From NCBI GenBank assembly GCA_045806525.1, contig JBJMJD010000009.1, positions 6,626-70,625 of the forward strand: 64,000 bases of DNA, read 5' to 3'. A model generated the notes under the pieces. That model had not been told where the DNA came from and made no database searches. It worked only from the letters and a program-made list of their open reading frames with translations. This document shows, in pieces, positions 40,572-63,598 of the stretch. This DNA is from Gaiellales bacterium. Lineage in GTDB: Bacteria > Actinomycetota > Thermoleophilia > Gaiellales > JAICJC01. A program made the translations under genes and the position numbers. Position 1 is the stretch's first letter. The number at the start of each line of letters is the position of its first letter.

Positions 40572-40585
40572 CGGCGGTCATCGGG

Positions 40586-42660: not shown

Positions 42661-42827
42661 GTTTGACCTCCGCTCGTCGGATCTGGCCACGATAATGCCA
42701 GCTTGAACGCTTAGATACAAGGGTCTGGACGGCATCGCGGCACGCGATGTGCCGCCAGCACTGTCAACACGCGGGACGCCGTGCAACCCGGCCGATGACG
42801 GTTCGCCGGGCTCTCCGGAAGGGCGCC

Positions 42828-44322: not shown

Positions 44323-44324
44323 CT

Positions 44325-44570: not shown

Positions 44571-44579
44571 CTCGTCCTC

Positions 44580-45436: not shown

Positions 45437-45438
45437 CC

Positions 45439-45735
45439 TCAGCGCTTCGCCGCGGCCGGTGCCACCGCCGCCGGCAGCACCTTCATCACGTCCTCGTGCG
45501 GCCGCGGGATCAGGTGCGCCGACACCAGCTCGCCGGTCTTCTTGGCCGCCGTCGCGCCGGCGTCGATCGCCGCCTTGACCGCACCCACGTCGCCACGCAC
45601 GGCAACGGTCACGTAGCCGCCGCCGATCGACTCGCGGCCAAGGATCTCGACGCTGGCCGCTTTCACCATCGCGTCCGCCGCTTCGATCGCGGCCACCAGC
45701 CCGCGCGTCTCGATCAGCCCCAGTGCTCCATCCAT
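45439..45735 (-). CDS. BMC hexamer shell protein (BMC-H, PduA/EutM type)
   Basis: 98 aa. [61 protein letters not shown] is near-consensus PF00936. Confidence 0.95.
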
Positions 45736-49545: not shown

Positions 49546-50450
49546 GCCCGCGCCTCGCCGCCCGCCAGCTCGTAGGTGTCGAAGTCGGCGCGGTCGCCGA
49601 ACGCCTCGGCCAGGGCGATGCCTTCGCTGACGACGGCCACCCAGTCGTCGGTCTCGGCCACCAAACAGGGCTTCGTGGAGAAGCGGTCGCGCGCGACGCC
49701 GAAGCCCTCGGCGGTCGACACCAGATAGGTGAAGGATCCATCTAGGTCGTCGATCGAGTCGCGCACAGCATCGTCCAGCGGCACGCCGGCCGCCATCCGG
49801 TCGGCCAGGTACACCGCGACGAACTCGGTGTCGTTGCCGGTCTGGAAACGGTGGCCGCGCATCTCGAACAGGCGCCGGTTCTTGTAGTAGTTGGTGACGT
49901 GGCCGTTGTGGACGACGGTCACGTCTGGGAACGGTCGCGCCCAGAACGGGTGCGAATGGTTCACGTCAACCCGCGACTCGGTCGCCATTCGGGCGTGACC
50001 GATCGCGTGGCTGTAGCTCGTTCCCAGCACGCCGAACCGCTCCGCCAGCTCGCGGGCGTCGGACGTGTGCTTGAGCAGCTCCAGCGATGTGCCGACCGAG
50101 AACACCCTCACGCCGGGTGCGCTGCGCTCGATCGCATCGGCCAGCGCCCCGATGTCACCGTCACCGCCGTTTCGCGCCAGCCCCAGCCGCCAGTAGCCGT
50201 CGCGGAACTGCTGGTCGGAGAGCTCGAACCCGGCCTCCGAGACGCCGTCGGACACCGCCGCGCGCGTGGCCTCACCGCCGGCCTCGCCGGCCCAGGCCGA
50301 AGCCACCAGGTCGCCCTGGAAGGGTGCGCCGTAGAGCGACAGCCCGGTCGAGTCCGGCCCGCGGCCGCGCAGCGCGGCAAGCATCGCCGTCAGCGTGGCG
50401 GCGACATCGACGCCGTCACGCTTTGCAAGGAATCCGGCGATGCCGCACAT
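49533..50450 (-). CDS. Class-II (Ntn) glutamine amidotransferase (GltB domain 1 / N-methylglutamate synthase subunit A-like)
   Basis: 305 aa, starting MCGIAGFL with nucleophile Cys2. Also RGPDSTG and HARMATES...HPF. Confidence 0.85.
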   Translation of the reverse strand: MCGIAGFLAKRDGVDVAATLTAMLAALRGRGPDSTGLSLYGAPFQGDLVASAWAGEAGGEATRAAVSDGVSEAGFELSDQQFRDGYWRLGLARNGGDGDIGALADAIERSAPGVRVFSVGTSLELLKHTSDARELAERFGVLGTSYSHAIGHARMATESRVDVNHSHPFWARPFPDVTVVHNGHVTNYYKNRRLFEMRGHRFQTGNDTEFVAVYLADRMAAGVPLDDAVRDSIDDLDGSFTYLVSTAEGFGVARDRFSTKPCLVAETDDWVAVVSEGIALAEAFGDRADFDTYELAGGEARAWTR

Positions 50451-50510: not shown

Positions 50511-51998
50511 TCACCGGGCCAGGTCGGCGAAGGCCGGCGCCAGCGCGTCGAACAGCAGCCGGTAGCGGCGGTAGCCCTGCTCGTAGGCGGCCGCAGCATC
50601 AGGGTCGGGATGGTGCTGCTCGGACGCCAGACGGCACATCGCCGCGGCCGCGGCCGGTACGTCCGCGTGCAACTCGCCGCCCGCGGCTGCCAGCATCGCG
50701 GCGCCACGGGAGGTCGTCTCGACGTCCTCGCTGTATCCGACCGGCAGCCCCGTCACGTCGGCGCGCATCTGACGCACCAGGGCCGAGCGCGCGCCGCCTG
50801 CCACGCAGACCACGCGCTGGCAGCCGAGCCCGGCTGCGGTGATGGCCTCGACGACGTCGCGCAGCGCGTAGGCCGAGCCCTCGAGCAGCGCCCGCACGAG
50901 GTGTCCGCGCCCGTGCGCGGGCGTCAGCCCGTACCAGGCGCCACGGGCTTCCGCCTCCCAGCGAGGCGCCATGGCGCCGCCCATCCAGGGCAGGAACACG
51001 AGCCCTTCGCTGGCCGCCGGCACCGCCTCGGCCGCCCGGTTGAGAGCCTCGTAGTCGGCACCGCCGCCCAGCTCGTCGCGGAACCAGCGGTAGTTGGCGC
51101 CGCTCGCCCAGCCCGGGTTCTCGAGCAGCCAGCGGCCGGGTGCGGCGTGGGGATGGCACTCGGCCACGCGACCGGCGTCGCGCAGCGGCCGGTCGCTGAC
51201 CGCACACACGGGCTCCGCTGTGCCGAGCACGTCGCAGACGGCGCCAGGCTCGGCCAGGCCGGCGCCCAGCGTGGCCGCCATCTCGTCGCCGCACCCACAG
51301 ATCACGAGCGCCTTCTCGCCGAGCCCGGTGGCGTCGGCGAACCCGGCGCTGACAGTGCCGAGCACCGCGTCGGCGGACACGACCGGCGGCAGCAACTCGG
51401 CGTCGATGCCGAACGCATCCAGCAGCGTCGTGTCCCAGCTGCCGGTGTCCGGATCGAGCAGCATGGTGGAGGACGCATTCGACCGGTCGACCGCGTCGGC
51501 TCCGCAGGCAACGCGCACCATGTACGAGCCGGGAAGCAGCGCCCGTGCCGTCCGCGCGTAGTCGTCGGGACGCTCCTGCGCGACCCAGGCCAGCTTCGCC
51601 GCCACATGCGACCCGTCCAGGTTGCAGCCCGACCGCCGGTACCACTCGTCGGCGTCGACGCGCGCCTCGGCCTGCCGGCAGAGCGGGTCGGCGCGGCGGT
51701 CCATCCAGATGATCGCGGGGCCGACCGGCTGCGCGTTGCGGTCGACGCAGACCAGCCCGTCCAGCTGCGAGCCGAACGAGATCGCCCGCACCCGGCGCAG
51801 GTTCACCCGTGCCGCCAGGTCGCGGAACCCGTTCACCAGCGCCGCGCGCCAGTCACGCGGGTCCTGCTCCACCCAGCCCGGACGCGGGTAGCGGAGCGGG
51901 TGCGGCTGGTATGTGGTGGCCAGCCGTTCGCCGGCCGCATCGAACACCGACAGGCATGACCCCTGCGAGCCGACGTCGATGCCGCAGACCAGCTCCAC
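50511..51998 (-). CDS. FGGY-family carbohydrate/polyol kinase
   Basis: 495 aa. Motifs VCGIDVGSQGS, GWVEQDP, PAIIWMDRRA, and the C-terminal FGGY half GGGARS. Confidence 0.85.
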   Translation of the reverse strand: MELVCGIDVGSQGSCLSVFDAAGERLATTYQPHPLRYPRPGWVEQDPRDWRAALVNGFRDLAARVNLRRVRAISFGSQLDGLVCVDRNAQPVGPAIIWMDRRADPLCRQAEARVDADEWYRRSGCNLDGSHVAAKLAWVAQERPDDYARTARALLPGSYMVRVACGADAVDRSNASSTMLLDPDTGSWDTTLLDAFGIDAELLPPVVSADAVLGTVSAGFADATGLGEKALVICGCGDEMAATLGAGLAEPGAVCDVLGTAEPVCAVSDRPLRDAGRVAECHPHAAPGRWLLENPGWASGANYRWFRDELGGGADYEALNRAAEAVPAASEGLVFLPWMGGAMAPRWEAEARGAWYGLTPAHGRGHLVRALLEGSAYALRDVVEAITAAGLGCQRVVCVAGGARSALVRQMRADVTGLPVGYSEDVETTSRGAAMLAAAGGELHADVPAAAAAMCRLASEQHHPDPDAAAAYEQGYRRYRLLFDALAPAFADLAR

Positions 51999-52001: not shown

Positions 52002-53054
52002 TCAGCCGTTCGGGGCGACGACGACCTTCAGCGCCTCACCCGAGCGGATGCGCTGAAAGGCCGCCGGCGTGTCGTCCAGCGAGACAACATCCGACACGAC
52101 CCCGCGGATGTTGTGCGTGTTGCGGCGCAGCATCTCCAGCGCCTGCACCTGGTCGCGGTGCCGGGAGGCGTAGCTGCCGTGCACCGCCACCTCGCGGTAG
52201 TGCAACACGTTGGAGGGGAAGGCGATCGTGGTCGTGCCCTTGGGCAGTCCGCCGAAGTACAGCACCCGGCCCCGCGGCGCCGCCATCTCCATGGCCTGCT
52301 CCTGCGCCTGCACGTTCGAGCACGCCACGATCACGCGGTCGGCTCCGTCGCCGGTCTCGTCCTTGATGAACTGCACGGGGTCGATGCCGGTGGTGTCGAC
52401 GTACCGGACGTTCGCGTCGTTCAGCACTCCGCGGGCCAGATCCAGCCGGCCGGCCGAGGTCTCGAGCAGGTAGACGAGATCGGCGCCCTGCGCCAGCGCC
52501 AGCGCCACATGCGCGGTGCCGACCGGGCCGGCCCCGATCACGACCACGTGCTGCTCGAGCCCGATGTCGAGGTCCTTGTGGCCGCAGATCGCATCCGAGA
52601 GCGGGTCGGCGAACGTGGCGTGCACCGGGTCCAGGCCATCCGGGAGCACGAACACGTTCTTCAGCGCCACCTGCGGTACCGCGACCAGCTCGGTGTAGGC
52701 GCCCTGGTAGTCGAAGCCCATCAGGCCGCCGTTCTGGCAGAGGTGCTCGTTGCCGCCGCGGCAGAGGCTGCAGTGGCCACAGTAGAGCGTCGAGATCACG
52801 TGCACGGTGTCGCCGACTGCGGCCGCCAGGTCGGCGCCCGCGTCCGGTCCGATGTCGAGCACCTCACCGCAGATCTCGTGTCCCAGCACCGCGCCAGGCT
52901 GGATCCGGCGGTCGCCGTTGAAGAAGGTGCGCACGTCGGTGCCGCAGATCCCGCAGGCGGTCACGCGCAGCAGGCAGCCGTCGGCCGGGCAGGTCGCATC
53001 CGCGACCTCGCCCAGGTGCATCTCGCCCGGCCCGTCCCATATCGCCGCCCTCAT
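52002..53054 (-). CDS. Zinc-dependent alcohol/polyol dehydrogenase (MDR family)
   Basis: 350 aa. Catalytic Zn motifs CGICGTDV and GHEICGEV, structural Zn Cys cluster CGHCSLCRGGNEHLC, and Rossmann VVVIGAGPVG. Confidence 0.85.
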   Translation of the reverse strand: MRAAIWDGPGEMHLGEVADATCPADGCLLRVTACGICGTDVRTFFNGDRRIQPGAVLGHEICGEVLDIGPDAGADLAAAVGDTVHVISTLYCGHCSLCRGGNEHLCQNGGLMGFDYQGAYTELVAVPQVALKNVFVLPDGLDPVHATFADPLSDAICGHKDLDIGLEQHVVVIGAGPVGTAHVALALAQGADLVYLLETSAGRLDLARGVLNDANVRYVDTTGIDPVQFIKDETGDGADRVIVACSNVQAQEQAMEMAAPRGRVLYFGGLPKGTTTIAFPSNVLHYREVAVHGSYASRHRDQVQALEMLRRNTHNIRGVVSDVVSLDDTPAAFQRIRSGEALKVVVAPNG

Positions 53055-53103
53055 GAGCCGCTGATCGTATCGTGAAACCGCTCGCCCGGGCAGGCCGCGT
53101 GGG

Positions 53104-53784
53104 TCACCCGGCGTGGGCGGCTCCGCGCGCGGCGCCCAGGATCGCCGTCAGCTGGGCGGCCAGGTCGCCGCCCGGCACGAACTCGCCGTTGAGCGCGGCC
53201 GTCCCGACCGTGAAGGCCCACACGCCAAGCGCCGACAGCTCCTCGATCCGCGCCACCGAGTCGACCGAGCCGGCGCAGATCAGCGGCAGGCTGGTGGTCT
53301 CGGAAACCCGACGCACCAGCTCGGCGACGTCGCCGTCGTAGCGGTATGCCAGCAGGTTGATCCCGTCCACGCCCTGCGCCTCGACGCGGCGGGCGTCCTC
53401 GCAGATCTCGTCGATCGTTCCCCGCAGCAGGCAGGGATGTCCGACGATGCGGCCGATGTAGGGGAAGTAGCGCATCCCCGACCCCTCGATGATGCGCTGC
53501 ACATCCTGCACCTGCGTTCCGCCGATCAGGTAGTCGGGGTGCACCCGCATCGCCGCCTCGGCTGAGCGCAGCTCGTCCTCGAGCGTGGCCGACACCACCT
53601 CCAGGTGGGTGGTCGCCCCGGCCGCGCGGGCCGAGTCCAGGAACGCCGCGAGCTCCGCCTCGGGCAGGCCGATGTCCTTGCAACCGACGTGGCTGACACC
53701 CACCGTTGTCACGTCTGCGAACACCTCCTGGGCGTCCGTGAGCGTCTTGTCGTCGCGGGTCAGCATGAAGATGAACTCAGGCAT
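53104..53784 (-). CDS. TIM-barrel-like protein of unknown function
   Basis: ATG at 53784 lies 5 nt after GAGGAG; 226 aa. EFIFMLTRDD... and ...PLICAGSVDSVARIEELSALGVWAFTVGTAAL show a distant, from-memory resemblance to ribulose-phosphate-binding barrels of the GlpP/NanE type. Confidence 0.4.
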   Translation of the reverse strand: MPEFIFMLTRDDKTLTDAQEVFADVTTVGVSHVGCKDIGLPEAELAAFLDSARAAGATTHLEVVSATLEDELRSAEAAMRVHPDYLIGGTQVQDVQRIIEGSGMRYFPYIGRIVGHPCLLRGTIDEICEDARRVEAQGVDGINLLAYRYDGDVAELVRRVSETTSLPLICAGSVDSVARIEELSALGVWAFTVGTAALNGEFVPGGDLAAQLTAILGAARGAAHAG

Positions 53785-53798
53785 GTCGTCTCCTCGGG

Positions 53799-55502
53799 TC
53801 AGGGTTGCACGGTGCTCCGGAACCGCACCAGCCGGACCGCAAGGCCCAGCTCGAACCAGCTGCCCGGCTCCCGCACGTCGCGGTCGATGATCTCTCCGAT
53901 CCGGCGCAGGCGCTGGCGGAGGGTGTTGCGGTGGATGAACAGCGCCTCGGCCGAGCGACGGGCGTTGCCATGCTGCTCGAGGTAGACCTCGAGCGTCCGG
54001 AACAGCTGGCTGCCACGGCGTGCATCCGTCTCCTGCAGCCGCACCAGCGCCAGCTCCAGCGGGTCGGGGTCGCCTTCGCGGGAGATCGTCCACAGGTGCC
54101 GCTGTGCGCCCAGCGCCTGGTAGCTCCGCACGCCGCTGCCCCCGGCGCGGGCAATCGTGGCGGCGATCCGGGCCTGACGCACGGCGCTCTGCGGATCGTC
54201 GCCGGCGGGCTCGCTGATGCCGGCTCCGGCGCCCGGGGGCAGCGACCGGGCCAGCAGCTGCTCGAGCCGCGGCCGCCAGCTCTGGCTGGCGATCGGCACC
54301 AGCGCCGACAGCTCATGCGCGCGCGCGTCGATCACGGTCTGTGGGAAGCTGCCCGCGAGCTGCTCGCCGAGCGCGCCCCATAGCCGGTCGGGGTCGCCTC
54401 CCGCCGCGGCCTCCGCCAGCACCACCACATGGGGCCGGTCGAGCGGCACCGACTCACCCGCTCGCAGCGCCTCGAACAGCTGCCGTGCCCGCGTCCGCTG
54501 GGCGGCGGCGTCGCGCCGTCGATCCTCCTCGAGAGCCAGCGCGGCATGGTTGGCTATGGTCGCGATCAGCTCGGTGTTGTCGGTCGAGAGAACGCGTCGC
54601 TCCTGCGAGAAACAGAGCAGCACGCCGGTCGGCCGTCCCTCCAGCCGCACCGCAGCGGCGAACAGGGAGCGCGCACGCGGGTGCAGCGCCAGCTCGGGCG
54701 CGTCGTCCAGCGCGATGCTGGCCGGCCCGCCGCCCAGCAGCCGGGCCCAGGCGCGGGTCGCTGCGATCGGCTCACCGCTCAGCCGGGCCTGGTCGCTTGA
54801 TGCCCAGGCCTCCACCAGCAGCCGATCACGCGCCGCGTCGAACCGCAGCAGGGCCGCCAGCGAGCCGTCCAGCAGCTCCATGGTCGCGATCGCGAGACGG
54901 TGCATGGTCTCGCGTGGGCTGGCCGAGGTCATCCGGTGCGAGAGGTCGGCCAGCCGACGGAACACGTCCACGCTGCGCAGCGCCCGCTCGTGCAGCTGCG
55001 CGTTCTCGACCGCGCCGGCGACCAGGCTGGCGATCGTCTCCAACATCGTCACATCGGAGTCGCTGAACTCGTGCGGCGCCTCGGTGTGCAGGGTCAGCAC
55101 TCCCAGCAGCTGGCCGGAACGGCCCACCACCGGCACCGTCGCCACCGACTGGAAGCGCTCGTCATTGAGGTCGGGCACGTACCGGTAGCGCGCATCCTCG
55201 AGTGGGCGCTCGGTGATGATCCCGGCCTGTCGGGTGAGCGCAGTCCAGCCGGTAAGGCCCTCGCCCATGCCCAGCGAAAAGCGCCCGATCCACTCGGTGT
55301 AGCCGTCGATCGCGCCGCGCACCACCAGCCGCTCCTGCTCGGAGTCCCACAGGTAGACGAGGGCGCCCTGGCAGCGGGTCAGCTCGGCGCAGACCGCTAT
55401 CGCCTCCTCCAGCACGCGGTCGAGGTCGAGGCTGGAGTTGACGCGCGAGGCCAGCGCCGAGATCGCCTCGAGATCGCGCGCGTGCTCCTCGACCCGCACC
55501 AT
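53799..55502 (-). CDS. GAF-domain / PucR-family transcriptional regulator
   Basis: ATG at 55502; 567 aa. N-terminal GAF (LDLDRVLEEAIAVCAELT...GEGLTGW) and a second GAF-like region. C-terminal PucR HTH LFRTLEVYLEQHGNARRSAEALFIHRNTLRQRLRRIGEI. The upstream part of track ORF 53799..56321 is a shadow. Confidence 0.8.
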   Translation of the reverse strand: MVRVEEHARDLEAISALASRVNSSLDLDRVLEEAIAVCAELTRCQGALVYLWDSEQERLVVRGAIDGYTEWIGRFSLGMGEGLTGWTALTRQAGIITERPLEDARYRYVPDLNDERFQSVATVPVVGRSGQLLGVLTLHTEAPHEFSDSDVTMLETIASLVAGAVENAQLHERALRSVDVFRRLADLSHRMTSASPRETMHRLAIATMELLDGSLAALLRFDAARDRLLVEAWASSDQARLSGEPIAATRAWARLLGGGPASIALDDAPELALHPRARSLFAAAVRLEGRPTGVLLCFSQERRVLSTDNTELIATIANHAALALEEDRRRDAAAQRTRARQLFEALRAGESVPLDRPHVVVLAEAAAGGDPDRLWGALGEQLAGSFPQTVIDARAHELSALVPIASQSWRPRLEQLLARSLPPGAGAGISEPAGDDPQSAVRQARIAATIARAGGSGVRSYQALGAQRHLWTISREGDPDPLELALVRLQETDARRGSQLFRTLEVYLEQHGNARRSAEALFIHRNTLRQRLRRIGEIIDRDVREPGSWFELGLAVRLVRFRSTVQP

Positions 55503-55519
55503 GGCGCGAGCATATCGCG

Positions 55520-55542
55520 CCTGTGTGCACGCTGAACACAGG
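55520..55542. promoter_or_regulatory. Inverted repeat CCTGTGT-N9-ACACAGG in the divergent promoter region of the BMC locus
   Basis: A 7-bp perfect inverted repeat containing TGTGCACG. It is adjacent to a second palindrome, GCGCGA-N5-TCGCGC, at 55504-55520. It lies between the regulator start (55502) and the divergent gene start (55575). Confidence 0.3.
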
Positions 55543-55574
55543 CGAATCGGGGGCGATTCCGATAGTCTCGCCAC

Positions 55575-56378
55575 GTGAGCAGCACGACCGTCGTCACGGA
55601 CTGGGCCGAGCGCACCGCCGAGCTGCACCGCGAGCTGATGCCGCAGAAGGACAACCTGTGCGGCGCGTTCTGGGGCGCGCTGGTTCTGACCGCGGCCGGC
55701 GTGCACGGGATTGACCAGGACCTGGTCGCGCAGGAGTCGGGCACGCTGCTGCCGGAGGGCGGCGAGCCACCGCCGCTTGCAGGCGTCGAGTCGCGGGTGG
55801 ACTACCGCCTTGAGCTGCCGCTGGCGCCTAGGCCTCAGTCCGGCACGCCGGGGCGGGGGCTGGCGATCGCGATCGAGCGCCTGTCGGCCGGCCGCCTGGC
55901 GGCGGTGCCGGTGGCCGGTCCCTGGACGGCCGAGACGGTGGCCGAACTGCTCTCGCTGGACCGGCAGATGCCGCTGATCGCAAACGTCGACACCGGCGCG
56001 CTGTGGGGAGCGTCTGCTGACCGCAAGCAGGTGCAGCGCCACCTCGACACCGGAGCGGACGACGGCCCCGCGGCCGACTGGTCTGTTGGCCACTTCGTCA
56101 ACCCGGTGGCAGTTCAGCGCGGGCGGGGTGCCGCCATCGTCACTGTCCGCGACACGTACCCCGCGATTGCCGGAGGCGTCCACCTGCAGCCGGCGTCGCG
56201 CCTTGCCGCGGCGCTTCGCCGTGACGACGGGCGCGAGGGCGGCGTGCTCTGCGTGTGCGATGCTGGGCGAGCCGCCGGCCTCGAGCGCGACCTGGCCGCG
56301 GGCGGGTTGCAGGTTCGCCATTGGGACAACGGAACCCCCGAACGCCTGTCAAGGCATGGGCGGGGAAGGAGGGGATAG
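55575..56378 (+). CDS. Hypothetical protein with papain-like Cys/His/Asp pattern (phytochelatin-synthase-like?, unverified)
   Basis: 267 aa. Gln24-x4-Cys29 (PQKDNLCGAFWGALVL), His173 (DWSVGHFVNPV) and Asp193 (VTVRDTY). The His-Asp spacing is close to that of gamma-glutamylcysteine peptidase/PCS-type enzymes. The stop abuts the GS-like start. Confidence 0.4.
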   Translation: MSSTTVVTDWAERTAELHRELMPQKDNLCGAFWGALVLTAAGVHGIDQDLVAQESGTLLPEGGEPPPLAGVESRVDYRLELPLAPRPQSGTPGRGLAIAIERLSAGRLAAVPVAGPWTAETVAELLSLDRQMPLIANVDTGALWGASADRKQVQRHLDTGADDGPAADWSVGHFVNPVAVQRGRGAAIVTVRDTYPAIAGGVHLQPASRLAAALRRDDGREGGVLCVCDAGRAAGLERDLAAGGLQVRHWDNGTPERLSRHGRGRRG

Positions 56379-57713
56379 GTGGCCACTGACACCACGATCG
56401 GCGCCGCTCAGGTGCTCGACGGTTGGCGCGCCCAGGGGATCCGCTTCGTGCGGTTCGAGCTGCCCGACATGCACGGCACCAGCCGAGCCAAGATGGTGCC
56501 GATCGAGCGGGCCTACGGCTACGCCGAGTCGGGGCTGAACATGTACGGCGGCGTTGCCGTCCTGGACAGCAGGTCTGACGTCGTGGGTGGAACGCTCTAT
56601 CACGAGGAGGTCGCATACGGCGACCAGCTGCTGTTGCCCGATCTGGAGACGGCCGCGGTGGTACCCTGGCGCGAGGCCACGGCGCGCTGGATCTGTGATT
56701 CCACCTGGGCCGACGGCACCCCGCTCGAGGCGTTGCCGCGGCGGGTCTGGCGCACACAGCTGGAGCGCGCCCGCGCGCTCGGCTACGAGCCCCTGATCGG
56801 GTACGAGCCGGAGTTCTACCTGCTGACCGCCGACCAGGAGCTGCTGTTCGAGGGCTACCACATCTTCAACGTCACGCGGAACACGTACGTGCCCTTCATC
56901 CAGGAGCTGGTCGAGCAGCTGAACGCGTATGGGCTCGAGGTGATCACGGCCAACTGCGAGTACGCCGGCTCGCAGTGGGAGCTGCCCTGCCTGCCGCAGC
57001 GCGGCATGGCCGGTCCCGACCGCTGCTTCTCGTTCAAGAACGCGGTCAAGGAGCTGGCCCACCTGCACGGCTACACCGCCACGTTCATGAGCAAGCCGTT
57101 CGCCGACTCGGCTGGATCGGGGCTGCACACCCACGTGTCTCTGCTGAACGTCGCCGACGGCGGCAACGCGTTCGGGGATGCGTCAGACGAGGCCGGTATC
57201 TCGGCCGCGTGCCGCAGCTTCATCGCCGGCAACGTGCGCCACGCCGCTTCCACCTATGCGCTGCTGGCTCCGACGGTGAACTGCATGAAGCGCCGCCGCA
57301 CGCACACGTTCAGCCCCACCAACGTGTCCTGGGGGCTGGAGGATCGCTCGGCGCTGATCCGGATAAAGGGCGGCACCACCGAGTCGAGGCACATCGAGCA
57401 CCGTGCTCCCACCGGCCTGGCCAACCCATACCTGGTGGGGGCGGCGATTCTGGCGGCCGGGCTGAACGGCATCGAGGACGGCCTCGAGCTGGAGCCGGCC
57501 GCTCATCCGCCGGCCGAGGAGGACGAGTCGCGGGCGAAGCTGCCGACATCGGTGCGCGAGTCGCTGGAGGCGCTGGAGGCGGACGAGCGGATTGCGGGCG
57601 CCCTCGGCCAGGACTTCGTCACCGCCTACGGCGTGATGCGACGCCACGAGCTGTCCCGCTTCGACGATCACGTTACCGACTGGGAACGCAACGAGTATGT
57701 CGAGATCTACTAG
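56379..57713 (+). CDS. Glutamine-synthetase-like ligase (gamma-glutamyl-amine synthetase candidate; GmaS/PuuA/GlnA-like family)
   Basis: GTG at 56379 follows GGAAGGAGGGG; 444 aa. Has a GS beta-grasp N-terminus (IRFVRFELPDMHGTSRAKMVP). Catalytic-domain motifs YEPEFYL, KPFADSAGSGLHTHVSL, NVSWGLEDRSALIRI. Confidence 0.85.
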   Translation: MATDTTIGAAQVLDGWRAQGIRFVRFELPDMHGTSRAKMVPIERAYGYAESGLNMYGGVAVLDSRSDVVGGTLYHEEVAYGDQLLLPDLETAAVVPWREATARWICDSTWADGTPLEALPRRVWRTQLERARALGYEPLIGYEPEFYLLTADQELLFEGYHIFNVTRNTYVPFIQELVEQLNAYGLEVITANCEYAGSQWELPCLPQRGMAGPDRCFSFKNAVKELAHLHGYTATFMSKPFADSAGSGLHTHVSLLNVADGGNAFGDASDEAGISAACRSFIAGNVRHAASTYALLAPTVNCMKRRRTHTFSPTNVSWGLEDRSALIRIKGGTTESRHIEHRAPTGLANPYLVGAAILAAGLNGIEDGLELEPAAHPPAEEDESRAKLPTSVRESLEALEADERIAGALGQDFVTAYGVMRRHELSRFDDHVTDWERNEYVEIY

Positions 57714-57907
57714 ATGGTTGGTTTCACGGGATGCGTGGATGCTGGTCGCAGGATGGGGCGCGTTGGGCGTCGGGAGCGTCCGCAGGGCAGGCTGGATGAT
57801 GTCCTGGCCGAGGACGATCGTGGCGTTCGGCGTGTCCCGGACCAGTCCGGCGCCGCGTAGCTCGTGGAACAACCATCTCTGCCGGCGACGCTGGGCGTGA
57901 CCGGGCG

Positions 57908-58579
57908 ATGAGGATCTCGGTCTTCATCACCTGCTTCAACGACACCCTGTTCCCGCAGACCGGCAGGGCGATGGTGGAGCTGCTGGAGCGGCTGGGGCAC
58001 GACGTCGAGTTCCGCCCGGAGCAGACGTGCTGCGGCCAGATGCACCTGAACAGCGGCTACCGCGACGAGGGGCTGGAGCTGGCGTCACGGATGCGGCGCG
58101 TATTCGACGGCGCCGAGGCGATCGTGACCCCGTCGGCCTCGTGCGCCGGCCACGTGCTCGAGCACGCGCCGGAGCTGCCGGTGCACGAGCTGTCGCAGTT
58201 CCTGACCGGCGTGCTCGGCGTCGAGGACGTCGGCGCGCGCTACCCGGCGCGGGTCGCGTATCACCCCACCTGTCACTCGCTGCGCACCCTGCATGTGGGG
58301 GACGGGCCGGGCCGCCTGCTCGCCGCCGTCCACGACCTCGATCTGGTGAAGATCGACGAGAGCGATCAGTGCTGTGGCTTCGGAGGCACCTTCGCGGTGA
58401 AGAACGCGGAGGTGTCGATGGCGATGCTCGACGACAAGCTGTCGGCCATCGAGCGCAGCGGCGCTGAGGCCGTCACCGCCGTCGACAACTCATGCCTGAT
58501 GCAGATCGGCGGCGGGCTCTCGCGGCGCGGCTCGCCGGTGCGCACGGTGCACCTGGCAGAGATCCTGGCGGCCACGTGA
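57908..58579 (+). CDS. lutA: L-lactate utilization protein A (CCG-domain Fe-S oxidoreductase)
   Basis: 223 aa: MRISVFITCFNDTLFPQTGRAMVELLERLG..VEF...QTCCGQ, with a second CCG motif CCGFGGTF. Confidence 0.85.
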   Translation: MRISVFITCFNDTLFPQTGRAMVELLERLGHDVEFRPEQTCCGQMHLNSGYRDEGLELASRMRRVFDGAEAIVTPSASCAGHVLEHAPELPVHELSQFLTGVLGVEDVGARYPARVAYHPTCHSLRTLHVGDGPGRLLAAVHDLDLVKIDESDQCCGFGGTFAVKNAEVSMAMLDDKLSAIERSGAEAVTAVDNSCLMQIGGGLSRRGSPVRTVHLAEILAAT

Positions 58580-59952
58580 GCAGCGCCAGGCGCGGCGGTG
58601 CCGCGTTTCCCCAGGCCGCGCACGTGGAGCTGCAAAACACGCAGCTGCGGCGGAACCTCGGCCACGCCACCCGCACGATCCGCGCCAAGCGGGCGGCGGT
58701 CGTTGACGAGCTCGGCAACTGGCAGCAGCTGCGCGAGGCCGGTGCGGCGATCAAGCGCGACGTGATGGCCAACCTGGACAGCTACCTGACGGAGTTCGAG
58801 CGGTCCGCCACCGACGCCGGTGCGACCGTGCACTGGGCGGCCGACGCCGGCACTGCCAACGACCTGGTCGCGGGCATCGTCGCAGCGCACGGCGAGCACC
58901 AGGTGGTCAAGGTGAAGTCGCTCACGACCGACGAGATCGGGCTCAACGACGCGCTTTCGGCCCGCGGCGTGGAAGCACTCGAGACCGACTTCGCGGAGCT
59001 GATCCTGCAGCTCGACGGCGACTGGTCGTCGCACATCCTGGTGCCGGCCATCCACCGCAACCGCACCGAGATCCGCGACCTGCTGCGGCGCACCATCGGC
59101 CCCGCCGACCTGTCGGACGATCCGGCCGCGCTGGCCGAGGCGGCGCGCATCCACCTGCGCGAGCGGTTCCTGCGCGCCCGCGTCGGCATCAGCGGCGCCA
59201 ACTTCGCGATCGCCGAGACCGGCACCCTGGTCGTGCTCGAGTCGGAGGGAAACGGCCGCATGTGCACGACCCTCCCCGACGTGCTGATCAGCGTGGTCGG
59301 GATCGAGAAGCTGCTGCCCCGCTTCGAACACCTGGCCGTGTTCATGCAGCTGCTCCCGCGTAGCTCGACCGGCGAGCGCATGAACCCCTACACCTCCCTC
59401 TGGACCGGCGTCACGCCCGGCGACGGCCCCGGCGAGATGCATGTTGTCCTGATCGACAACGGCCGCAGCGACGTGCTCCGTGACCCGGTCGGGCGCGAGG
59501 CGCTGCACTGCATCCGCTGCTCCGCCTGCCTGAACGTGTGCCCGGTCTACGAGCGCACCGGCGGCCATGCCTACGGATCGATCTACCCCGGGCCGATCGG
59601 GGCGATCCTGACGCCGCAGCTCGAGGGCATCGGCGCGGCCGCCAGCCTGCCATACGCCTCCAGCCTGTGCGGGGCCTGCTACGAGGTGTGCCCGGTCAAG
59701 ATCGATATCCCGCGCGTGCTGGTGCACCTGCGGGGTCTGGCGCGCAAGAGCGGAGCCGAGCGGCGGGCGATGCGGACGCTGGCCTGGCTGTTCGCGGACG
59801 CCGGCCGCTACCGGCGCGCGCAGCGGCTGGCGCGGGTGCTGCCGGCCCGCGTGGCCGGCGCTGGCCCGATGAGGGCGTGGACGGCCGGCCGCGACCTGCC
59901 CCCCGTGGCGCCCCAGAGCTTCCGGGAGTGGTGGCATGAGCGACGCCCGTGA
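58576..59952 (+). CDS. lutB: L-lactate utilization protein B (4Fe-4S ferredoxin-type, LUD domain)
   Basis: GTG at 58576 overlaps the lutA stop (GTGA). Motifs CIRCSACLNVCPVY and CGACYEVCPVKIDIP. The LUD domain carries ISGANFAIAETGTLVVLESEGNGR. Confidence 0.9.
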   Translation: MSSARRGGAAFPQAAHVELQNTQLRRNLGHATRTIRAKRAAVVDELGNWQQLREAGAAIKRDVMANLDSYLTEFERSATDAGATVHWAADAGTANDLVAGIVAAHGEHQVVKVKSLTTDEIGLNDALSARGVEALETDFAELILQLDGDWSSHILVPAIHRNRTEIRDLLRRTIGPADLSDDPAALAEAARIHLRERFLRARVGISGANFAIAETGTLVVLESEGNGRMCTTLPDVLISVVGIEKLLPRFEHLAVFMQLLPRSSTGERMNPYTSLWTGVTPGDGPGEMHVVLIDNGRSDVLRDPVGREALHCIRCSACLNVCPVYERTGGHAYGSIYPGPIGAILTPQLEGIGAAASLPYASSLCGACYEVCPVKIDIPRVLVHLRGLARKSGAERRAMRTLAWLFADAGRYRRAQRLARVLPARVAGAGPMRAWTAGRDLPPVAPQSFREWWHERRP

Positions 59953-60553
59953 GATCGTGCTGGGCCGCGTCCGCGCGGCGCTGGTCGACAGCCCGCAGCC
60001 GGCCGCCACGGCGCTGCCGCCGGCGCCGCCCCCTCCTGCCGACCCGGTCGCGCTGTTCGCAGAGCGCGCGGGCGAGTATCGCGCCGCCGTGCACCGCGTC
60101 GATCGGGCCGGCGTGGCAGAGCGGGTCGCCGAGATCTGCGCCGCCCACGGTGCCCGCCGCCTGGCCGTGCCGGAGGATCTGCCGGGAGGCTGGCTTCCGC
60201 ACGGTGTGGAGGCGACCCGCGATGCGACGGTCTCGGCTCTCGATCGGGTGGACGGCGTGCTCACGGGCTGCGCCGCTGCCATCGCCGAGACCGGCACCAT
60301 CGTGCTGGACGGCGGTCCCGGCCAGGGCATCCGCGCGATGACGCTGGTGCCGGACCTGCACATCTGCGTGGTCCCGGTGGAGCTCGTATGCGCCTCGATC
60401 GGCGAGGCGTTTCAGCGGGTGGAGCCGTCGGTACGGTGCCGCCGCGCGCCGCTGACGCTGATCTCGGGACCGTCCGCCACCTCCGACATCGAGCTGTCTC
60501 GGGTCGAAGGCGTGCACGGCCCACGCCGGCTTGAGATCGTGATCGCCAGCTAG
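59936..60553 (+). CDS. lutC: L-lactate utilization protein C (LUD domain)
   Basis: 205 aa. Motifs ILGRVRAAL, GCAAAIAETGTIVLDGG, and SGPSATSDIE. Confidence 0.8.
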   Translation: MSDAREIVLGRVRAALVDSPQPAATALPPAPPPPADPVALFAERAGEYRAAVHRVDRAGVAERVAEICAAHGARRLAVPEDLPGGWLPHGVEATRDATVSALDRVDGVLTGCAAAIAETGTIVLDGGPGQGIRAMTLVPDLHICVVPVELVCASIGEAFQRVEPSVRCRRAPLTLISGPSATSDIELSRVEGVHGPRRLEIVIAS

Positions 60554-61230
60554 CTGACGACCGGCCAGTCCGGCCGGTCGCGGATCGCGTCGAGGTCGCT
60601 GTCGCCGGCCGACCAGGTGCGCACCGCGTCCGGATCGCCGGCGAAGGCCTGCGACAGCAGCTCGATCGCCTCGTCGTCGCGGCCGGCCAGCGCCCGGTAG
60701 CACGCCGCGTTGTAGAGGATCGAGGTGTTGCCCGGGTGCTCGGCAAGGCCGGCCTTGAGCAGGTCGTAGGCCCCGTCCAGATCTCCGGCCTTCGCGACCG
60801 CGTCCGCCGCGAAGTAGTGCTCCCACGCCGACGGCGTGAAGGCTTCCCCCGGCTTACCGCCGATCGCGAGCACCGTCGTGTTCGGCTCCGCCGCCACGGC
60901 GTGCCGCTTCAGCGCCGGATCGGCCAGGTACACCAGGGAGCCCGCGGGCACGTCGCTGGTCTCGCCGTCCACCGTGAAGGTCGCCCGGCCGTTCAGCACC
61001 AGGTAGATCTCCTCGTGTCCGAGCTGCGTCTCGGTGTGCTCCTCGACCAGGTCGTCGCCGATGTTGGCCGCGGTGTAGGCATTGATGCCGAAGGCACGCA
61101 CGCCCAGCGTGCGCCGCAGCGGCCGCCACTGCAGCGTTCCGTTCACCACCGCCAGGGACGGCACGTCGCCGATCGCGAGCACCTGAAAGCCGTCGGTCAC
61201 CTCCCTCACCTTACCCGCGAAATCACGCAT
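60550..61230 (-). CDS. Cupin-domain protein with C-terminal TPR-like region
   Basis: 226 aa. Cupin core GHEEIYLVLNGRATFTVDGE. The C-terminus AYDLLKAGLAEHPGNTSILYNAACYRALAGRDDEAIELL is TPR-like. Confidence 0.6.
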   Translation of the reverse strand: MRDFAGKVREVTDGFQVLAIGDVPSLAVVNGTLQWRPLRRTLGVRAFGINAYTAANIGDDLVEEHTETQLGHEEIYLVLNGRATFTVDGETSDVPAGSLVYLADPALKRHAVAAEPNTTVLAIGGKPGEAFTPSAWEHYFAADAVAKAGDLDGAYDLLKAGLAEHPGNTSILYNAACYRALAGRDDEAIELLSQAFAGDPDAVRTWSAGDSDLDAIRDRPDWPVVS

Positions 61231-61268: not shown

Positions 61269-61841
61269 ATGTCAATCACTCTCTACTCAGCCGACATTTG
61301 CCCCTACTGCGTGCGCACCCGCCTGGTGCTGAACGGAAAGGGCATCGAGTACGACCTGGTGCAGGTCGACCTGCCCGACAAGCCGGCCTGGCTGCGCGAG
61401 CTGAACCCGCGCAACCGCGTGCCCGTGCTCGACGTCGACGGACAGGTGCTGTGGGAGTCAGAGGCGCTCAACGACTTCCTCGACGAGACGCACCCCGAGC
61501 CGGCCATGATGCCGTCCGACCCGATCGATCGTGCCTGTGTGCGGATGGTGCTGCGGCGATTCGAGGATCTCTCCGACGCGTTCTACGCCGCCCGCAGGGA
61601 AGAGGACGGGGCGATCGAGGCGCTGCACGCCGAGCTTCGGTGGGTGTCGTCACAGCTCGAGCAGAGCAGCTACCTGGTCGGCGAGAGCTACACGCTGGCC
61701 GAGCCGGGTGTCTGGCCGTGGATCACGCGCCTGCACCGGGTCGGAGTCGACATCGGTCAGTACCCGGCCATCGCTGCCTGGTGTGACCGCCTGGCGGAGC
61801 GGCCCGAGTACGCGGCCGAGCTCAGCCTGCTGGCCGCGTAG
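61269..61841 (+). CDS. Glutathione S-transferase / glutaredoxin-2-like protein (CPYC active site)
   Basis: 190 aa. Motifs LYSADICPYCVRTRLVL and RVPVLDVDGQVLWESEALNDFL, followed by a C-terminal GST helical domain. Confidence 0.8.
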   Translation: MSITLYSADICPYCVRTRLVLNGKGIEYDLVQVDLPDKPAWLRELNPRNRVPVLDVDGQVLWESEALNDFLDETHPEPAMMPSDPIDRACVRMVLRRFEDLSDAFYAARREEDGAIEALHAELRWVSSQLEQSSYLVGESYTLAEPGVWPWITRLHRVGVDIGQYPAIAAWCDRLAERPEYAAELSLLAA

Positions 61842-62532
61842 CGAACCGCGCGAAGCGTTCGGCCAGCGTGCGGCCCACCCGCTGGTGCGTCTCGAGGTGC
61901 GCGTCCAGCGACTCCAGGAACCGGTCGCGGGGATAGCCGTTCGTGGCCAGGTCGTCGCCGCCCATCTCCAGCCAGGTCAGCAGCACCGGCCGCGTCACCT
62001 CGATGTGGAACTGGGTGCCCCAGGCGGCGTCACCGACCCGCAGCGCCTGCAGCGAGACCGGGTTGGTCATCAGCTCCACGGCCCCGCTGCCGGGACGGCA
62101 GGCGTAGTAGTGCCACTGCATCGCCTGGAACCGCCGCGGGAGCTCGTCGAACAGTGCGTCGCCGGCGGCGGCGGGCGTCAGCTCCACCTCGTGCCAGCCG
62201 ATCTCGTGCGGCTCGCAGCGGTACACGGTGCCGCCCGCGGCCTCGGTCAGCACCTGCGCGCCCAGGCACAGGCCCATGTAAGGCGTGCGCCGCTCGAGCG
62301 CCTCGCGCACCAGCTCGATCTCCCGCGCCAGCCAGGGATGCTCGGCGGCCTGGTGCGTGTCGACCAGGCCGCCGCCCGCCACCACCGCCTCGAAACCGTC
62401 CAGCGACGCGGGCAGCTCGTCCCCGGCGTAGGGGTGCAGCGTGTCGACCGTGAACCCGTGCTGCTCGAGCGCATCCACGAACAGGCCGGCGGGATCGGTC
62501 GACTCGTTCTGGATATGCAGCGCCCTAGCCAC
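61822..62532 (-). CDS. Class-I glutamine amidotransferase-like protein
   Basis: 236 aa. Nucleophile elbow YMGLCLGAQVL and the downstream motif FHIE. Confidence 0.8.
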   Translation of the reverse strand: MARALHIQNESTDPAGLFVDALEQHGFTVDTLHPYAGDELPASLDGFEAVVAGGGLVDTHQAAEHPWLAREIELVREALERRTPYMGLCLGAQVLTEAAGGTVYRCEPHEIGWHEVELTPAAAGDALFDELPRRFQAMQWHYYACRPGSGAVELMTNPVSLQALRVGDAAWGTQFHIEVTRPVLLTWLEMGGDDLATNGYPRDRFLESLDAHLETHQRVGRTLAERFARFATRPAG

Positions 62533-63598
62533 GGAACTTCGCCGCCTCGCGGTACGCCTCCTGCTCGCGCCGGATCAGGTCGGGGTTGACGTCGCGCGCC
62601 ACCGCCAGCTCGTGCGCCAGCCACTGCACGGCGGGTGCCGTCGCCAGCAGCGCCTCGGCCGCGGCGGGAAGCGCATCCGCCGCCGGCGTCGGCACGTACC
62701 CAGCTGCGGCCATCCCCCGGTCGGGCGCCTGGCGGCCGACCACGGCACACCGCACACCGACCCGAGCGGACGCCTGCAGGACCATCTGGCCGAGCTCCCG
62801 GCGAGGGCCGGAGCGCCGTCGCTCGTGCTCGATCAGCACCAGCCCGGTGCGCTCGTCGCAGGCCGGCAGGTGGCCGTGCAGGAAGGTCTCGAGATCCCGC
62901 ATCGCCGTCGGGATGTGGGCCGCCTCCTCGATCTTGAGGGTCAGCTCGCGGGCCGCGATGCGGTCGGCGCCCGACCCGACCACGATCAGGTGGTCGCAGC
63001 CGTTCAGGGCTTCGGCCACGGCCGTGACGGAGCCGCGGTCGCTGACTCCGGCCGTGACCAGCCCCTCGACGACGCCGGGCGACGGCCTCGCGGCCAGGGC
63101 CAGGGTGGCGGCGATCGGCGAGGTGTAGCCGACCGTGTGACACCAGCTGCGGTCGACCATGGGCGTGACCAGCACGGCGTCAGCCTGCTCGGTGGCCTTG
63201 CTCTCGCCCCGCGCGGTGATCAGGGCGGTGCTCGACCCGGCGCGCCGAGCCGCCTCGAGCGCCTCGATCGTGGCCCAGGTGCCGCCTTCGTGGGAGATGC
63301 CAAGCACCGCTCCGCCCTGCTGTGGGTCGAGTGCCGCCTCGTACGCCTGCCGTGATCCGGCCGCTGTGCCCGCCTCGGTCAGGATCTCCGCCGCCGCCAT
63401 CGCCGCGTGCTCGCTGGTGCCGCAGCCGACCATGGTCAACGGGCCGTCCACCTTCAGCAGCAGCGCCAGCGCTGCCGTGTCGCTCGTGGTTGCGATCCGC
63501 TCGAGCAGCGCCGGCTGGGCCTCGATCATCTCCTGCATCACCCAGGGCGGGTGGGCGCGCAGCTCCGGGAAGTCGTCGGTGTGCCAGTCGTCGGTCAT
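62525..63598 (-). CDS. SIS-domain sugar-phosphate isomerase/deaminase (second GlmS-C-like paralog)
   Basis: 357 aa. Motifs MIEAQPALL, MVGCGTSEHAA, ISHEGGT, and a second SIS half LIVVGSGAD. Confidence 0.8.
   Translation of the reverse strand: MTDDWHTDDFPELRAHPPWVMQEMIEAQPALLERIATTSDTAALALLLKVDGPLTMVGCGTSEHAAMAAAEILTEAGTAAGSRQAYEAALDPQQGGAVLGISHEGGTWATIEALEAARRAGSSTALITARGESKATEQADAVLVTPMVDRSWCHTVGYTSPIAATLALAARPSPGVVEGLVTAGVSDRGSVTAVAEALNGCDHLIVVGSGADRIAARELTLKIEEAAHIPTAMRDLETFLHGHLPACDERTGLVLIEHERRRSGPRRELGQMVLQASARVGVRCAVVGRQAPDRGMAAAGYVPTPAADALPAAAEALLATAPAVQWLAHELAVARDVNPDLIRREQEAYREAAKFRG

Follow-up and report, generated by a model that had tools for sequence, protein, structure and literature searches.

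The window analysed here is a stretch of 64,000 nucleotides of contig JBJMJD010000009.1 from a Gaiellales bacterium (assembly GCA_045806525.1), and the subject of this work is a pair of abutting genes at its positions 55575-57713. The first gene encodes a 267-aa protein of the Pfam family DUF6885, and the second a 444-aa ligase with the fold of glutamine synthetase (GS). The window also carries genes for a bacterial microcompartment (BMC). We tentatively suggest that the two proteins belong to one gamma-glutamylation route, in which the ligase would join glutamate to an amine and the DUF6885 protein would later release it.

Organisation of the gene pair

The pair and its immediate surroundings comprise the following features.
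55575-56378 (+): gene of the 267-aa DUF6885 protein, GTG start
56364-56374 (+): Shine-Dalgarno-like run GGAAGGAGGGG, inside the 3' end of the DUF6885 gene and 5 nt upstream of the ligase GTG
56379-57713 (+): gene of the 444-aa ligase, GTG start
53799-55511 (-): gene of a GAF-GAF-PucR(HTH_30) regulator (Pfam GAF_2 4e-25, HTH_30 7e-21)

Both open reading frames (ORFs) are present in the window and have the lengths that the original prediction gave them. The gap between them is zero, also as predicted: the TAG stop of the DUF6885 gene (56376-56378) is followed directly by the GTG of the ligase gene (56379-56381). The matches to DUF6885 and Gln-synt_C described below add support, and the adjacency recurs in 51 of 78 species-level loci, well beyond what chance would give. 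In a window with a G+C content of 71%, the G+C content at third codon positions is 0.86 in the DUF6885 gene and 0.91 in the ligase gene, which is of the coding type, as for real genes in this genome. The description of the two genes as a divergent pair has to be corrected, however. Both lie on the + strand, and the divergent partner of the DUF6885 gene is the regulator gene, 63 nt upstream of its start.

The Shine-Dalgarno-like run holds the core AAGGAGG at 56366-56372, 6 nt upstream of the ligase GTG. Its position inside the DUF6885 gene, together with abutting or overlapping stop and start codons in the orthologous loci, suggests translational coupling. Measured by tblastn, the offset from the end of the DUF6885 match to the start of the ligase match is -43 to +54 nt in nearly all loci; the outlier is locus L014 (+183 nt), where the ligase match begins at query residue 81. 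The pair had been proposed to act as a unit, and the data suggest that it is one, namely a conserved, translationally coupled cassette found in amine-catabolic and BMC loci.

Fold and active site of the DUF6885 protein

The 267-aa protein is a full-length member of Pfam DUF6885 (PF21819), matching profile positions 5-251 of 251 with an E-value of 2e-66 and 224 bits against a cut-off of 27. An NCBI entry, 'DUF6885 family protein [Gaiellales bacterium]', has the same sequence (100% identity), and the protein matches no NCBIfam family. All 103 homologs in our alignment also match Pfam DUF6885. In a set of 5.8 billion proteins we detected at least 830 members, which form 271 clusters at 50% identity. 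Among reference genomes the family is essentially limited to Thermoleophilia (Gaiellales, Solirubrobacterales), Rubrobacteria and Dormibacterota.

An AlphaFold2 model based on the 103 homologs (pLDDT 95.1, pTM 0.92) was used as a Foldseek query against the PDB, and all 15 of the 15 matches at E<=1e-3 are papain-like enzymes. Among them are Der p 1 (8.7e-5), plant papains and papain-family enzymes, cathepsin B, and the Nostoc phytochelatin-synthase-like protein 6tho, a glutathione acyl-enzyme (2e-4, target-normalised TM 0.51-0.55). The highest target-normalised TM, 0.63, belongs to the papain-like toxin 9l5u_B, and staphopain and a CDI toxin fall just below the 1e-3 cut-off. The papain-like fold that had been recognised from the sequence pattern is thus borne out, as all the top matches are cysteine enzymes of the clan-CA type. 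An assignment to arylamine-N-acetyltransferase-like or NlpC/P60 proteins was rejected, since neither is among the top 50 Foldseek matches. The PDB entry 22oc, a 'P210 CD lyase' released in 2026, is also among the significant matches; no other neighbour has a lower rmsd (4.9 A), and its target-normalised TM of 0.61 is exceeded only by that of 9l5u_B. Our literature search returned nothing on a 'P210 lyase'.

The predicted catalytic residues were found at the positions that the original prediction had assigned to them. The motif PQKDNLCGAFWG, which starts at residue 23, holds Gln24, the presumed oxyanion residue, and Cys29, the presumed nucleophile, while WSVGHFV (from residue 169) holds His173 and VRDTY (from residue 191) holds Asp193. 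In the model, Cys29 lies at the first turn of helix 29-40, His173 opens strand 172-182 and Asp193 is just past strand 187-192. As modelled, this is the canonical papain arrangement, with the His and the Asp on adjacent strands. Among the 103 homologs, which are 46-89% identical, nine residues are invariant (Q24, C29, W33, N137, H173, D193, Y195, Q205 and R216). The expected conservation of the catalytic set also extends to 62 distant representatives (26-67% identical), where Q24, C29 and N137 are kept in 62/62, H173 in 60/62, and D193 in 58/62 with Glu in 2 more.

At the sequence level, phmmer and the family profile gave no papain-like match at E<=10 among PDB chains, only chance matches, and none of the 103 members matches another clan-CA Pfam family at E<=10. 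Weak Pfam matches of individual members (EccE in 20/103, best 0.002, and others) are scattered and were treated as noise. In the model the N-terminus is part of the folded domain, and therefore DUF6885 is predicted to have no signal peptide. The disordered C-terminal tail, on inspection, does not resemble an encapsulation peptide. Taken from the model, DUF6885 is a predicted active, cytosolic papain-fold thiol enzyme that is very remote from the known members of the fold.

The partner is a predicted gamma-glutamyl-amine-type ligase

The 444-aa protein matches Pfam Gln-synt_C with an E-value of 6e-83, and it stays under every NCBIfam equivalog cut-off. It scores 243 bits against 429 for the GlnA model TIGR00653, and 229 against 650 for gamma-glutamylputrescine synthetase (GGputSyn, PuuA). 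For the 'type III glutamate--ammonia ligase' TIGR03105 (gln_synth_III), which we take to be the GmaS-type family, as PDB 7cql bears the same name, it scores 259 bits against 470. It is approximately equidistant from the solved structures of GSI-alpha (about 1e-53) and of GmaS (9qur 7e-48, 7cql 1e-45).

The residues for metal, ATP and glutamate are kept (EPEFY 143-147, NCEYAGSQWE 192-201, GSGLHTH 246-252, R305, R323/R328, E340/R342) and are conserved in 115-116 of 116 orthologs. The ammonium site is different. In the alignment to true GS structures, Asp50' is replaced by Gly57 (MFDGS aligns with MYGGV), followed by a 7-residue insertion, and Glu327 of the flap is replaced by Phe311 (GYEAP aligns with HTFSP); for this mapping we presume the Salmonella numbering. 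Gly57 and Phe311 are invariant in the 116 orthologs, and the flap position is Phe or Trp also in the three other GS-like subfamilies that adjoin DUF6885. Because Asp50' and Glu327 are lost in all orthologs, we regard the protein as an amine ligase and not as an assimilatory GS. The earlier view that it is no ordinary ammonium GS is therefore well founded, and judged from sequence the protein is a predicted gamma-glutamyl-amine-type ligase.

Linkage of DUF6885 to GS-like ligases across species

Gene neighbours were counted in 78 loci on contigs from one genome per species. A GS-like gene lies directly downstream of DUF6885 on the same strand in 51 of them, and 21 of these 51 are sandwiches in which DUF6885 stands between two GS-like genes. 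With the 6 loci where a GS-like gene is directly upstream only, adjacency on either side reaches 57/78. Another 5 loci have a non-adjacent GS-like gene within 6 kb, giving 62/78 within this distance.

The flanking ligases fall into four subfamilies with a mutual identity of 29-37%. The window-type ligase lies downstream of DUF6885 in Gaiellales, Dormibacterota and Solirubrobacterales, and a second subfamily lies upstream of it in Dormibacterota and Solirubrobacterales. Rubrobacteria have a separate pair of subfamilies, one upstream and one downstream. From the four subfamilies and the 21 sandwiches it follows that what stays constant beside DUF6885 is the ligase chemistry, rather than one ortholog or one amine. 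The pairing of DUF6885 with this class of ligases is hard to explain unless there is a chemical feature on which both act.

Sixteen loci have no GS-like gene within 6 kb, and in most of these the neighbour of DUF6885 is an EamA transporter gene. In 10 of the 16, DUF6885 is convergent with a pair of genes for an amidinotransferase/ADI-like protein and an M20 peptidase, and the ligase-less loci of the EamA and ADI-M20 kind include L010, L025, L029, L032, L033, L036, L044, L045, L048 and L054. A carbon-nitrogen hydrolase gene lies upstream in two ligase-less loci. The ADI-M20 pair is also present in the window, at 36667-38798, and further along the type I loci described below.

The close coupling of the two genes could also be read in terms of the proteins themselves. 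DUF6885 would then be a protein-directed cysteine peptidase or an accessory subunit, with a part in the maturation, regulation or degradation of the GS-like dodecamer and no action on small molecules. A fixed stoichiometry is suggested by the translational coupling and by stop and start codons that abut or overlap, and most of the papain-fold neighbours in the PDB are proteases. Against this, L084 and L085 have an orthologous ligase (72% identical) but no DUF6885, DUF6885 occurs without a nearby ligase in the 16 loci, and four unrelated ligase subfamilies would all have to be its substrates. Apparent domain fusions also lend it no help, as P0160 (EamA with DUF6885), P0255 (a DUF6885 fragment with GS fragments) and P0323 (a 579-aa GS) are gene-calling or frameshift artefacts. 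We rejected them as Rosetta-stone evidence because the segments are junk or frameshifted and the fused genes are simply neighbours. We consider a role directed at the ligase protein highly improbable.

Amine operons and microcompartment loci

Outside the Gaiellales, the cassette is found in operons for amine catabolism. In the Dormibacterota locus L071 the order is class-III aminotransferase, class-I amidotransferase/C26 (PuuD-like), GntR, aminotransferase, GS-like, DUF6885, GS-like and amino-acid permease. Locus L082 resembles it and adds an aldehyde dehydrogenase and an ADH. Both are Puu/Pau-like amine-catabolic operons.

In the window, the genes on the other side of the regulator and those downstream of the ligase are as follows.
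43717-44322 (-): BMC-T-like shell protein, one of three shell genes assigned by Pfam in the block 43717-45735 (-)
44325-44570 (-): BMC-P (EutN) shell protein
44580-45050 (-): family-less protein of about 156 aa, between BMC-P and BMC-H
45056-45436 (-): cyclophilin-like/DUF3830 protein, between BMC-P and BMC-H
45439-45735 (-): BMC-H shell protein
45750-47546 (-): aldehyde dehydrogenase (AldDh), 598 aa, Aldedh 1e-171 over residues 122-584
47543-48913 (-): FMN Glu_synthase domain protein, member of a split glutamate synthase/MgsABC-like trio (47543-50450, by Pfam)
48835-49545 (-): GXGXG protein of the trio
49533-50450 (-): class-II amidotransferase of the trio
50511-51998 (-): FGGY sugar kinase, xylulokinase-like (FGGY_N and FGGY_C; XylB 327 bits, cut-off 380)
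52002-53054 (-): Zn-dependent alcohol/polyol dehydrogenase (ZnADH), threonine-dehydrogenase-like (ADH_N and ADH_zinc_N; tdh 164 bits, below cut-off)
53104-53760 (-): TIM-barrel-like protein, 218 aa, between ZnADH and the regulator (weak His_biosynth match, no NCBIfam family)
57908-60553 (+): lutA/lutB/lutC-like lactate-utilisation genes (domains CCG, LUD_dom, Fer4, LutB_C)
61822-62532 (-): class-I glutamine amidotransferase/peptidase C26-like protein (GATase 2e-16, Peptidase_C26 6e-7)

The shell block, including the cyclophilin-like/DUF3830 and ~156-aa proteins, is kept in L080, L085 and L101. The AldDh has a ~115-aa N-terminal extension; its best NCBIfam families are BADH, ABALDH and PuuC, and it is of the non-acylating type. 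Metabolosomes normally use CoA-acylating aldehyde dehydrogenases, so that a non-acylating one is unusual. The MgsABC-like trio recurs in L081, L083, L084 and L085. The TIM-barrel-like gene is kept in L002-L008 and L076 and sits near the position of DeoC in related loci, with no detectable similarity between the two proteins. The lutABC genes directly follow the ligase in L001-L008 and L083. The main text of the BMC catalogue (PMC8217296) makes no mention of GS-like or glutamate-synthase-like BMC loci.

The Gaiellales loci are of three types.
Type I (L080, L101, L102): on the left BMC shell, AldDh, ADH, FGGY, DeoC and ZnADH; on the divergent right DUF6885, GS, an unknown gene, permease, SDR and DAO; MgsABC-like trio absent
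Type II (window, L001-L008, L081, L083): on the left BMC shell, AldDh, MgsABC-like trio, FGGY, DeoC or the TIM-barrel gene, ZnADH and GAF-PucR; on the divergent right DUF6885, GS and LutABC; trio and DUF6885 both present
Type III (L084, L085): on the left BMC, AldDh, trio, an ornithine-cyclodeaminase-like gene and the regulator; on the divergent right a GS 72% identical to the window ligase; DUF6885, FGGY and ZnADH absent

These types hold as far as the contigs reach. The contigs of L083 and L001-L008 run out within the trio, that of L081 in AldDh, and that of L102 before AldDh and the shell. In L080 and L101 the block up to the shell genes has no trio, and the gene order of L102 agrees with theirs over the length of its contig; L101 lacks the SDR and DAO genes. 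No other candidate deglutamylase lies near the pair in type I loci, and type III loci have the MgsA-like amidotransferase and no DUF6885. This contrast is the pattern expected if DUF6885 and the trio are alternative ways of processing a gamma-glutamyl amide.

The trio with the ligase recalls the N-methylglutamate pathway (GmaS, MgsABC and MgdABCD). A GS-like ligase and the class-II amidotransferase, GXGXG and FMN-domain proteins stand under one divergent regulator, and the GmaS structures 9qur and 7cql are among the closest PDB relatives of the window ligase. The differences are that the trio of the window is in a BMC operon and that DUF6885 has no counterpart in that pathway. We found no homolog of N-methylglutamate dehydrogenase or DAO in the window, and no description of an N-methylglutamate synthase with a microcompartment in the literature.

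The same loci bear on a second explanation, which places DUF6885 ahead of the ligase as a thiol amidase. Its substrate would be a natural amide conjugate, such as a peptide-like conjugate of a polyamine or an amine with an N-acyl or polyhydroxy-acyl group. Once freed, the amine would pass to the ligase for gamma-glutamylation, and the products of the ZnADH, FGGY kinase and aldolase genes would take up the remaining half. In the Gaiellales, the occurrence of DUF6885 coincides exactly with that of ZnADH, FGGY and DeoC (or the TIM-barrel gene) in the window, L079, L080, L083, L101 and L102, and L084 and L085 lack those genes and DUF6885, yet retain the orthologous ligase, the trio, AldDh and the BMC. 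The operon order, with DUF6885 before the ligase, and the presence of DUF6885 in operons that already have a C26/PuuD-like deglutamylase point the same way, and there is a precedent in the CHAP amidase of glutathionylspermidine synthetase/amidase (GspSA), which frees a polyamine from an amide. On the other hand, Dormibacterota and Rubrobacter operons without polyol-processing genes keep the tight linkage of DUF6885 to GS. Moreover, the glutamyl chemistry is constant across the four ligase subfamilies, whereas the amine-bearing substrate would have to differ, and no candidate conjugate is known. We think that an amidase upstream of the ligase is rather unlikely.

Relation to phytochelatin synthase

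The original prediction placed the DUF6885 protein among phytochelatin synthase (PCS)-type enzymes. PCS and the cyanobacterial Alr0975 (C83, PF05023) do share with it a papain-like fold, a Cys...His...Asp triad with a Gln a few residues before the Cys, and a G-H-F motif at the His. The spacings differ, with Gln-x4-Cys in DUF6885 against Gln-x5-Cys in PCS, and His-x19-Asp against x17. PF05023 (Phytochelatin) has no match at E<=10 in any of the 103 members. When the DUF6885 profile was compared by hhalign with an alignment of 30 PCS sequences, seeded with a sequence taken as AtPCS1 that proved 90% identical to a Brassica PCS, the probability was 7% and the E/P value 0.005 over 112 columns, as a single planned comparison. 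The register puts His173 on PCS His162 (VGHF on GHF), Asp193 on Asp180 and HLQP on HWVP, and it spans residues 100-235 only, so that the N-terminal Cys motif is outside. In this register PCS Arg183 (AtPCS1 DVARFKYPP) and Arg212-Gly213 are not conserved, the window protein having Pro196 and Gly222-Gly223 there. Together, hhalign and Foldseek suggest that DUF6885 is distantly akin to the PCS/C39 branch of papain-like enzymes, but they do not support placing it in the phytochelatin synthase family itself.

The assignment also carried the claim that PCS-type enzymes act on gamma-glutamyl bonds, and this does not hold. PCS cleaves the Cys-Gly bond of glutathione and transfers gamma-Glu-Cys, so it is an invalid precedent for gamma-glutamyl cleavage. 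Better precedents within the papain fold are the NlpC/P60 gamma-glutamyl hydrolases, the transglutaminases and the CHAP amidase of glutathionylspermidine synthetase.

What the PCS likeness does raise is a third explanation, namely that DUF6885 is an acyl- or gamma-glutamyl-transferase (transpeptidase), as are PCS, BtrH and transglutaminase. The thioester would be resolved by an amine or amino-acid acceptor, and a glutamyl (or glutamyl-amine) unit would be moved between molecules, which could link the products of both flanking ligases in the sandwich loci. The Nostoc PCS is the sole named, functionally annotated non-protease among the best structural neighbours, the hhalign register pairs the His and the Asp (with the P value and the seed given above), and DUF6885 stands between two different ligases in 21 loci. 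The low hhalign probability, the absence of a PF05023 match and the replacement of the substrate-binding Arg183 and Arg212 by Pro196 and Gly222 speak against it, as do the contexts, which are catabolic (permeases, aminotransferases, aldehyde dehydrogenases) and not biosynthetic. We hold a transferase to be quite improbable.

Proposed function of DUF6885

We propose that DUF6885 serves a gamma-glutamylation route as its thiol amidohydrolase, matching PuuD, IpuF or AtdA2 in function without being homologous to them. We put this forward tentatively, as a possibility that we hold somewhat short of even. The computations show to which class the fold belongs, that the catalytic set is conserved, that the ligase has lost its ammonium-site residues and that the genes are linked. 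Which substrate is used, which bond is cleaved, where in the pathway this happens and how it may relate to the BMC are inferred.

In the proposed mechanism, the ligase would activate the gamma-carboxyl of glutamate with ATP and join it to an organic amine instead of ammonium. The glutamylated conjugate would be oxidised via an aldehyde, which would be handled by the PuuC/BADH-like AldDh, in Gaiellales probably inside the BMC. Cys29 would then attack the gamma-glutamyl amide, most likely that of the oxidised end product (a gamma-glutamyl amino acid after the AldDh step). Water would resolve the acyl-thioester on Cys29, so that glutamate would be regenerated and a nitrogen-containing product released.

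This proposal draws on two kinds of precedent. GS-like ligases are typically encoded next to their own gamma-glutamyl hydrolase (puuA/puuD, ipuC/ipuF, atdA1/atdA2), and papain-fold NlpC/P60 enzymes, PgdS and transglutaminases act on gamma-glutamyl amides. The likeness to PuuA/PuuD of E. coli, and to IpuC/IpuF, AtdA1/AtdA2 and Streptomyces GlnA4 with its hydrolase, lies in a GS-fold amine ligase beside a proposed deglutamylase, and in the PuuC-like aldehyde dehydrogenase, aminotransferases and permease of DUF6885 clusters. Of the gene set of the Puu/Pau/Ipu type (ligase, an oxidation step to an aldehyde, aldehyde dehydrogenase and gamma-glutamyl hydrolase), the window has the ligase and the PuuC/BADH-like AldDh, while L071 and L082 have aminotransferases and a C26 hydrolase. 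The class-III aminotransferases, permeases and aldehyde dehydrogenases of the Puu-like operons, and the PuuC/BADH-like aldehyde dehydrogenase of the BMC loci, both support the proposal. The known hydrolases of these systems, however, have the class-I amidotransferase (peptidase C26) fold, in contrast to the papain-like fold of DUF6885, and some DUF6885 loci hold both genes.

For the chemistry, the NlpC/P60 gamma-glutamyl hydrolases (PgdS, gamma-D-Glu-mDAP endopeptidases), the transglutaminases and protein-glutaminase use a Cys-His-(Asp/His) set to attack a gamma-glutamyl amide via a thioester, so the proposed reaction would be normal for the papain fold. These enzymes are mostly secreted and modify cell wall or protein, and none is among the top 50 Foldseek matches, while DUF6885 has no predicted signal peptide. 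GspSA likewise combines an ATP-dependent amide ligase with a papain-like (CHAP) thiol amidase on the same amide, with release of the polyamine. Its ligase is ATP-grasp and not GS-fold, though, and both activities are fused in one protein. Its CHAP domain also belongs to the NlpC/P60 branch, whereas the structural neighbours of DUF6885 are in the papain/PCS/staphopain branch.

Several points weigh against a role as the deglutamylase. A second such enzyme looks redundant because the window already has an MgsA-like amidotransferase and the C26-like gene, and because L071 and L082 have C26 genes that coexist with DUF6885. If a ligase and a hydrolase for the same bond are made at a constant ratio, ATP would be wasted, unless the hydrolase accepts only a later intermediate. 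The tracking of ZnADH, FGGY and DeoC by DUF6885 fits equally well the splitting of a polyol-amine conjugate before the ligase step. The 16 of 78 loci without a ligase, and the ADI-M20 setting of ten of them, are also unfavourable. The structural similarity is moderate, with query-normalised TM values of 0.3-0.46 for the Foldseek matches, and we found no mention of DUF6885 in searchable papers.

Concerning the C26-like gene of the window, its product is 29% identical to the C26 protein of L071, and from its sequence it is a rival candidate for the gamma-glutamyl hydrolase, with a PuuD-like fold. This gene overlaps one for a two-SIS-domain protein (GlmS isomerase half/NagB-II-like), the two spanning 61822-63598 (-). 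Judged by its domains, the pair could act on an amino-sugar phosphate as a deglycase or deaminase, a role in keeping with the ZnADH and FGGY genes.

The original prediction also placed the BMC-internal steps between the actions of the two enzymes, and this is compatible with the data. In its strongest form, DUF6885 would be a new papain-fold family of small-molecule gamma-glutamyl amidases or transferases that runs a gamma-glutamyl 'handle' cycle around the BMC with GS-like ligases. The amine would receive its glutamyl group in the cytosol, formation and oxidation of the glutamylated amino-aldehyde would fall to the AldDh inside the shell, and DUF6885 would afterwards strip the handle. We regard this extended version as unlikely.

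Gamma-glutamylation is the main bacterial route for detoxifying and catabolising polyamines, ethanolamine, alkylamines and anilines in many bacteria. To our knowledge, every characterised route of this kind ends with a hydrolase of the class-I-amidotransferase fold. With a papain-fold enzyme linked to four GS-like subfamilies, a non-homologous solution for deglutamylation, or a new step, would be added. The DUF6885 route would be of a known kind, in a variant that relies on an uncharacterised enzyme family. In addition, this work offers a testable function for a DUF with at least 830 members, in lineages (Thermoleophilia, Rubrobacteria and Dormibacterota) that are abundant in soil and almost unstudied biochemically. 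It also gives an entry point to an uncharacterised type of BMC locus, in which a GS-like ligase occurs together with a split glutamate-synthase-like trio and a non-acylating aldehyde dehydrogenase. If the handle cycle were true, this would be the first BMC with a cargo pathway on gamma-glutamylated amines, in Thermoleophilia that dominate many soils.

Regulatory and mobile sequences around the pair

The 63-nt divergent intergenic region upstream of the DUF6885 gene holds two further features.
55518-55544 (no strand): palindrome CGCCTGTGTGCA-n3-TGAACACAGGCG, an inverted repeat, 92% complementary
55563-55568 (+): TAGTCT, a -10-like hexamer (TAnnnT) about 6 nt upstream of the DUF6885 GTG

The GAF-PucR regulator gene occupies the same position in L001-L008, L081, L083 and L084. 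An 840-aa ORF on the minus strand (53799-56321), which overlaps the DUF6885 gene, is judged a high-GC artefact because the homologous regulators measure 568-601 aa. The arms of the palindrome are kept and its loop varies in L001-L006 and L008, and a related GTGTGCA...ACAC motif is present in L081 and L083, whose DUF6885 proteins are only ~55-58% identical. The palindrome is a candidate PucR-type operator of the regulator. The hexamer is kept as TAGTCT or TAGGCT ~6-7 nt upstream of the GTG in L001-L008 and L081. Its fixed distance supports GTG 55575 as the annotated start, and its closeness to the GTG suggests that the DUF6885-ligase mRNA may be leaderless. A consensus scan gave no sigma-70 promoter in 55300-58100, and no intrinsic terminator was found in the same interval. 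No Rfam family matches in 53000-60600, and neither a PADLOC defence family nor a plasmid homolog was found.

On the far side of the BMC operon, an IS200/Y1-transposase-like ORF with a C-terminal HTH lies at 42877-43599 (-), just past the last shell gene. It separates the operon from unknown, permease and SDR genes at 39749-42786, which in L083 sit downstream of lutABC, and this different position suggests a rearrangement.

Between the ligase stop and lutA, at 57714-57879 (+), there is a near-perfect hairpin of ~165 nt with the termini ATGGTTG...CAACCAT. The RNA minimum free energy of 57714-57907 is -115 kcal/mol (z -5.97), and no Rfam family was found for the hairpin. It is absent in the orthologous loci, where lutA begins 3-120 nt past the ligase. 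Copies that are 83-96% identical occur on ten soil metagenome contigs with none of the window's genes nearby, and the hairpin looks like a palindromic mobile element, similar to a miniature inverted-repeat transposable element (MITE), that was inserted into the operon.

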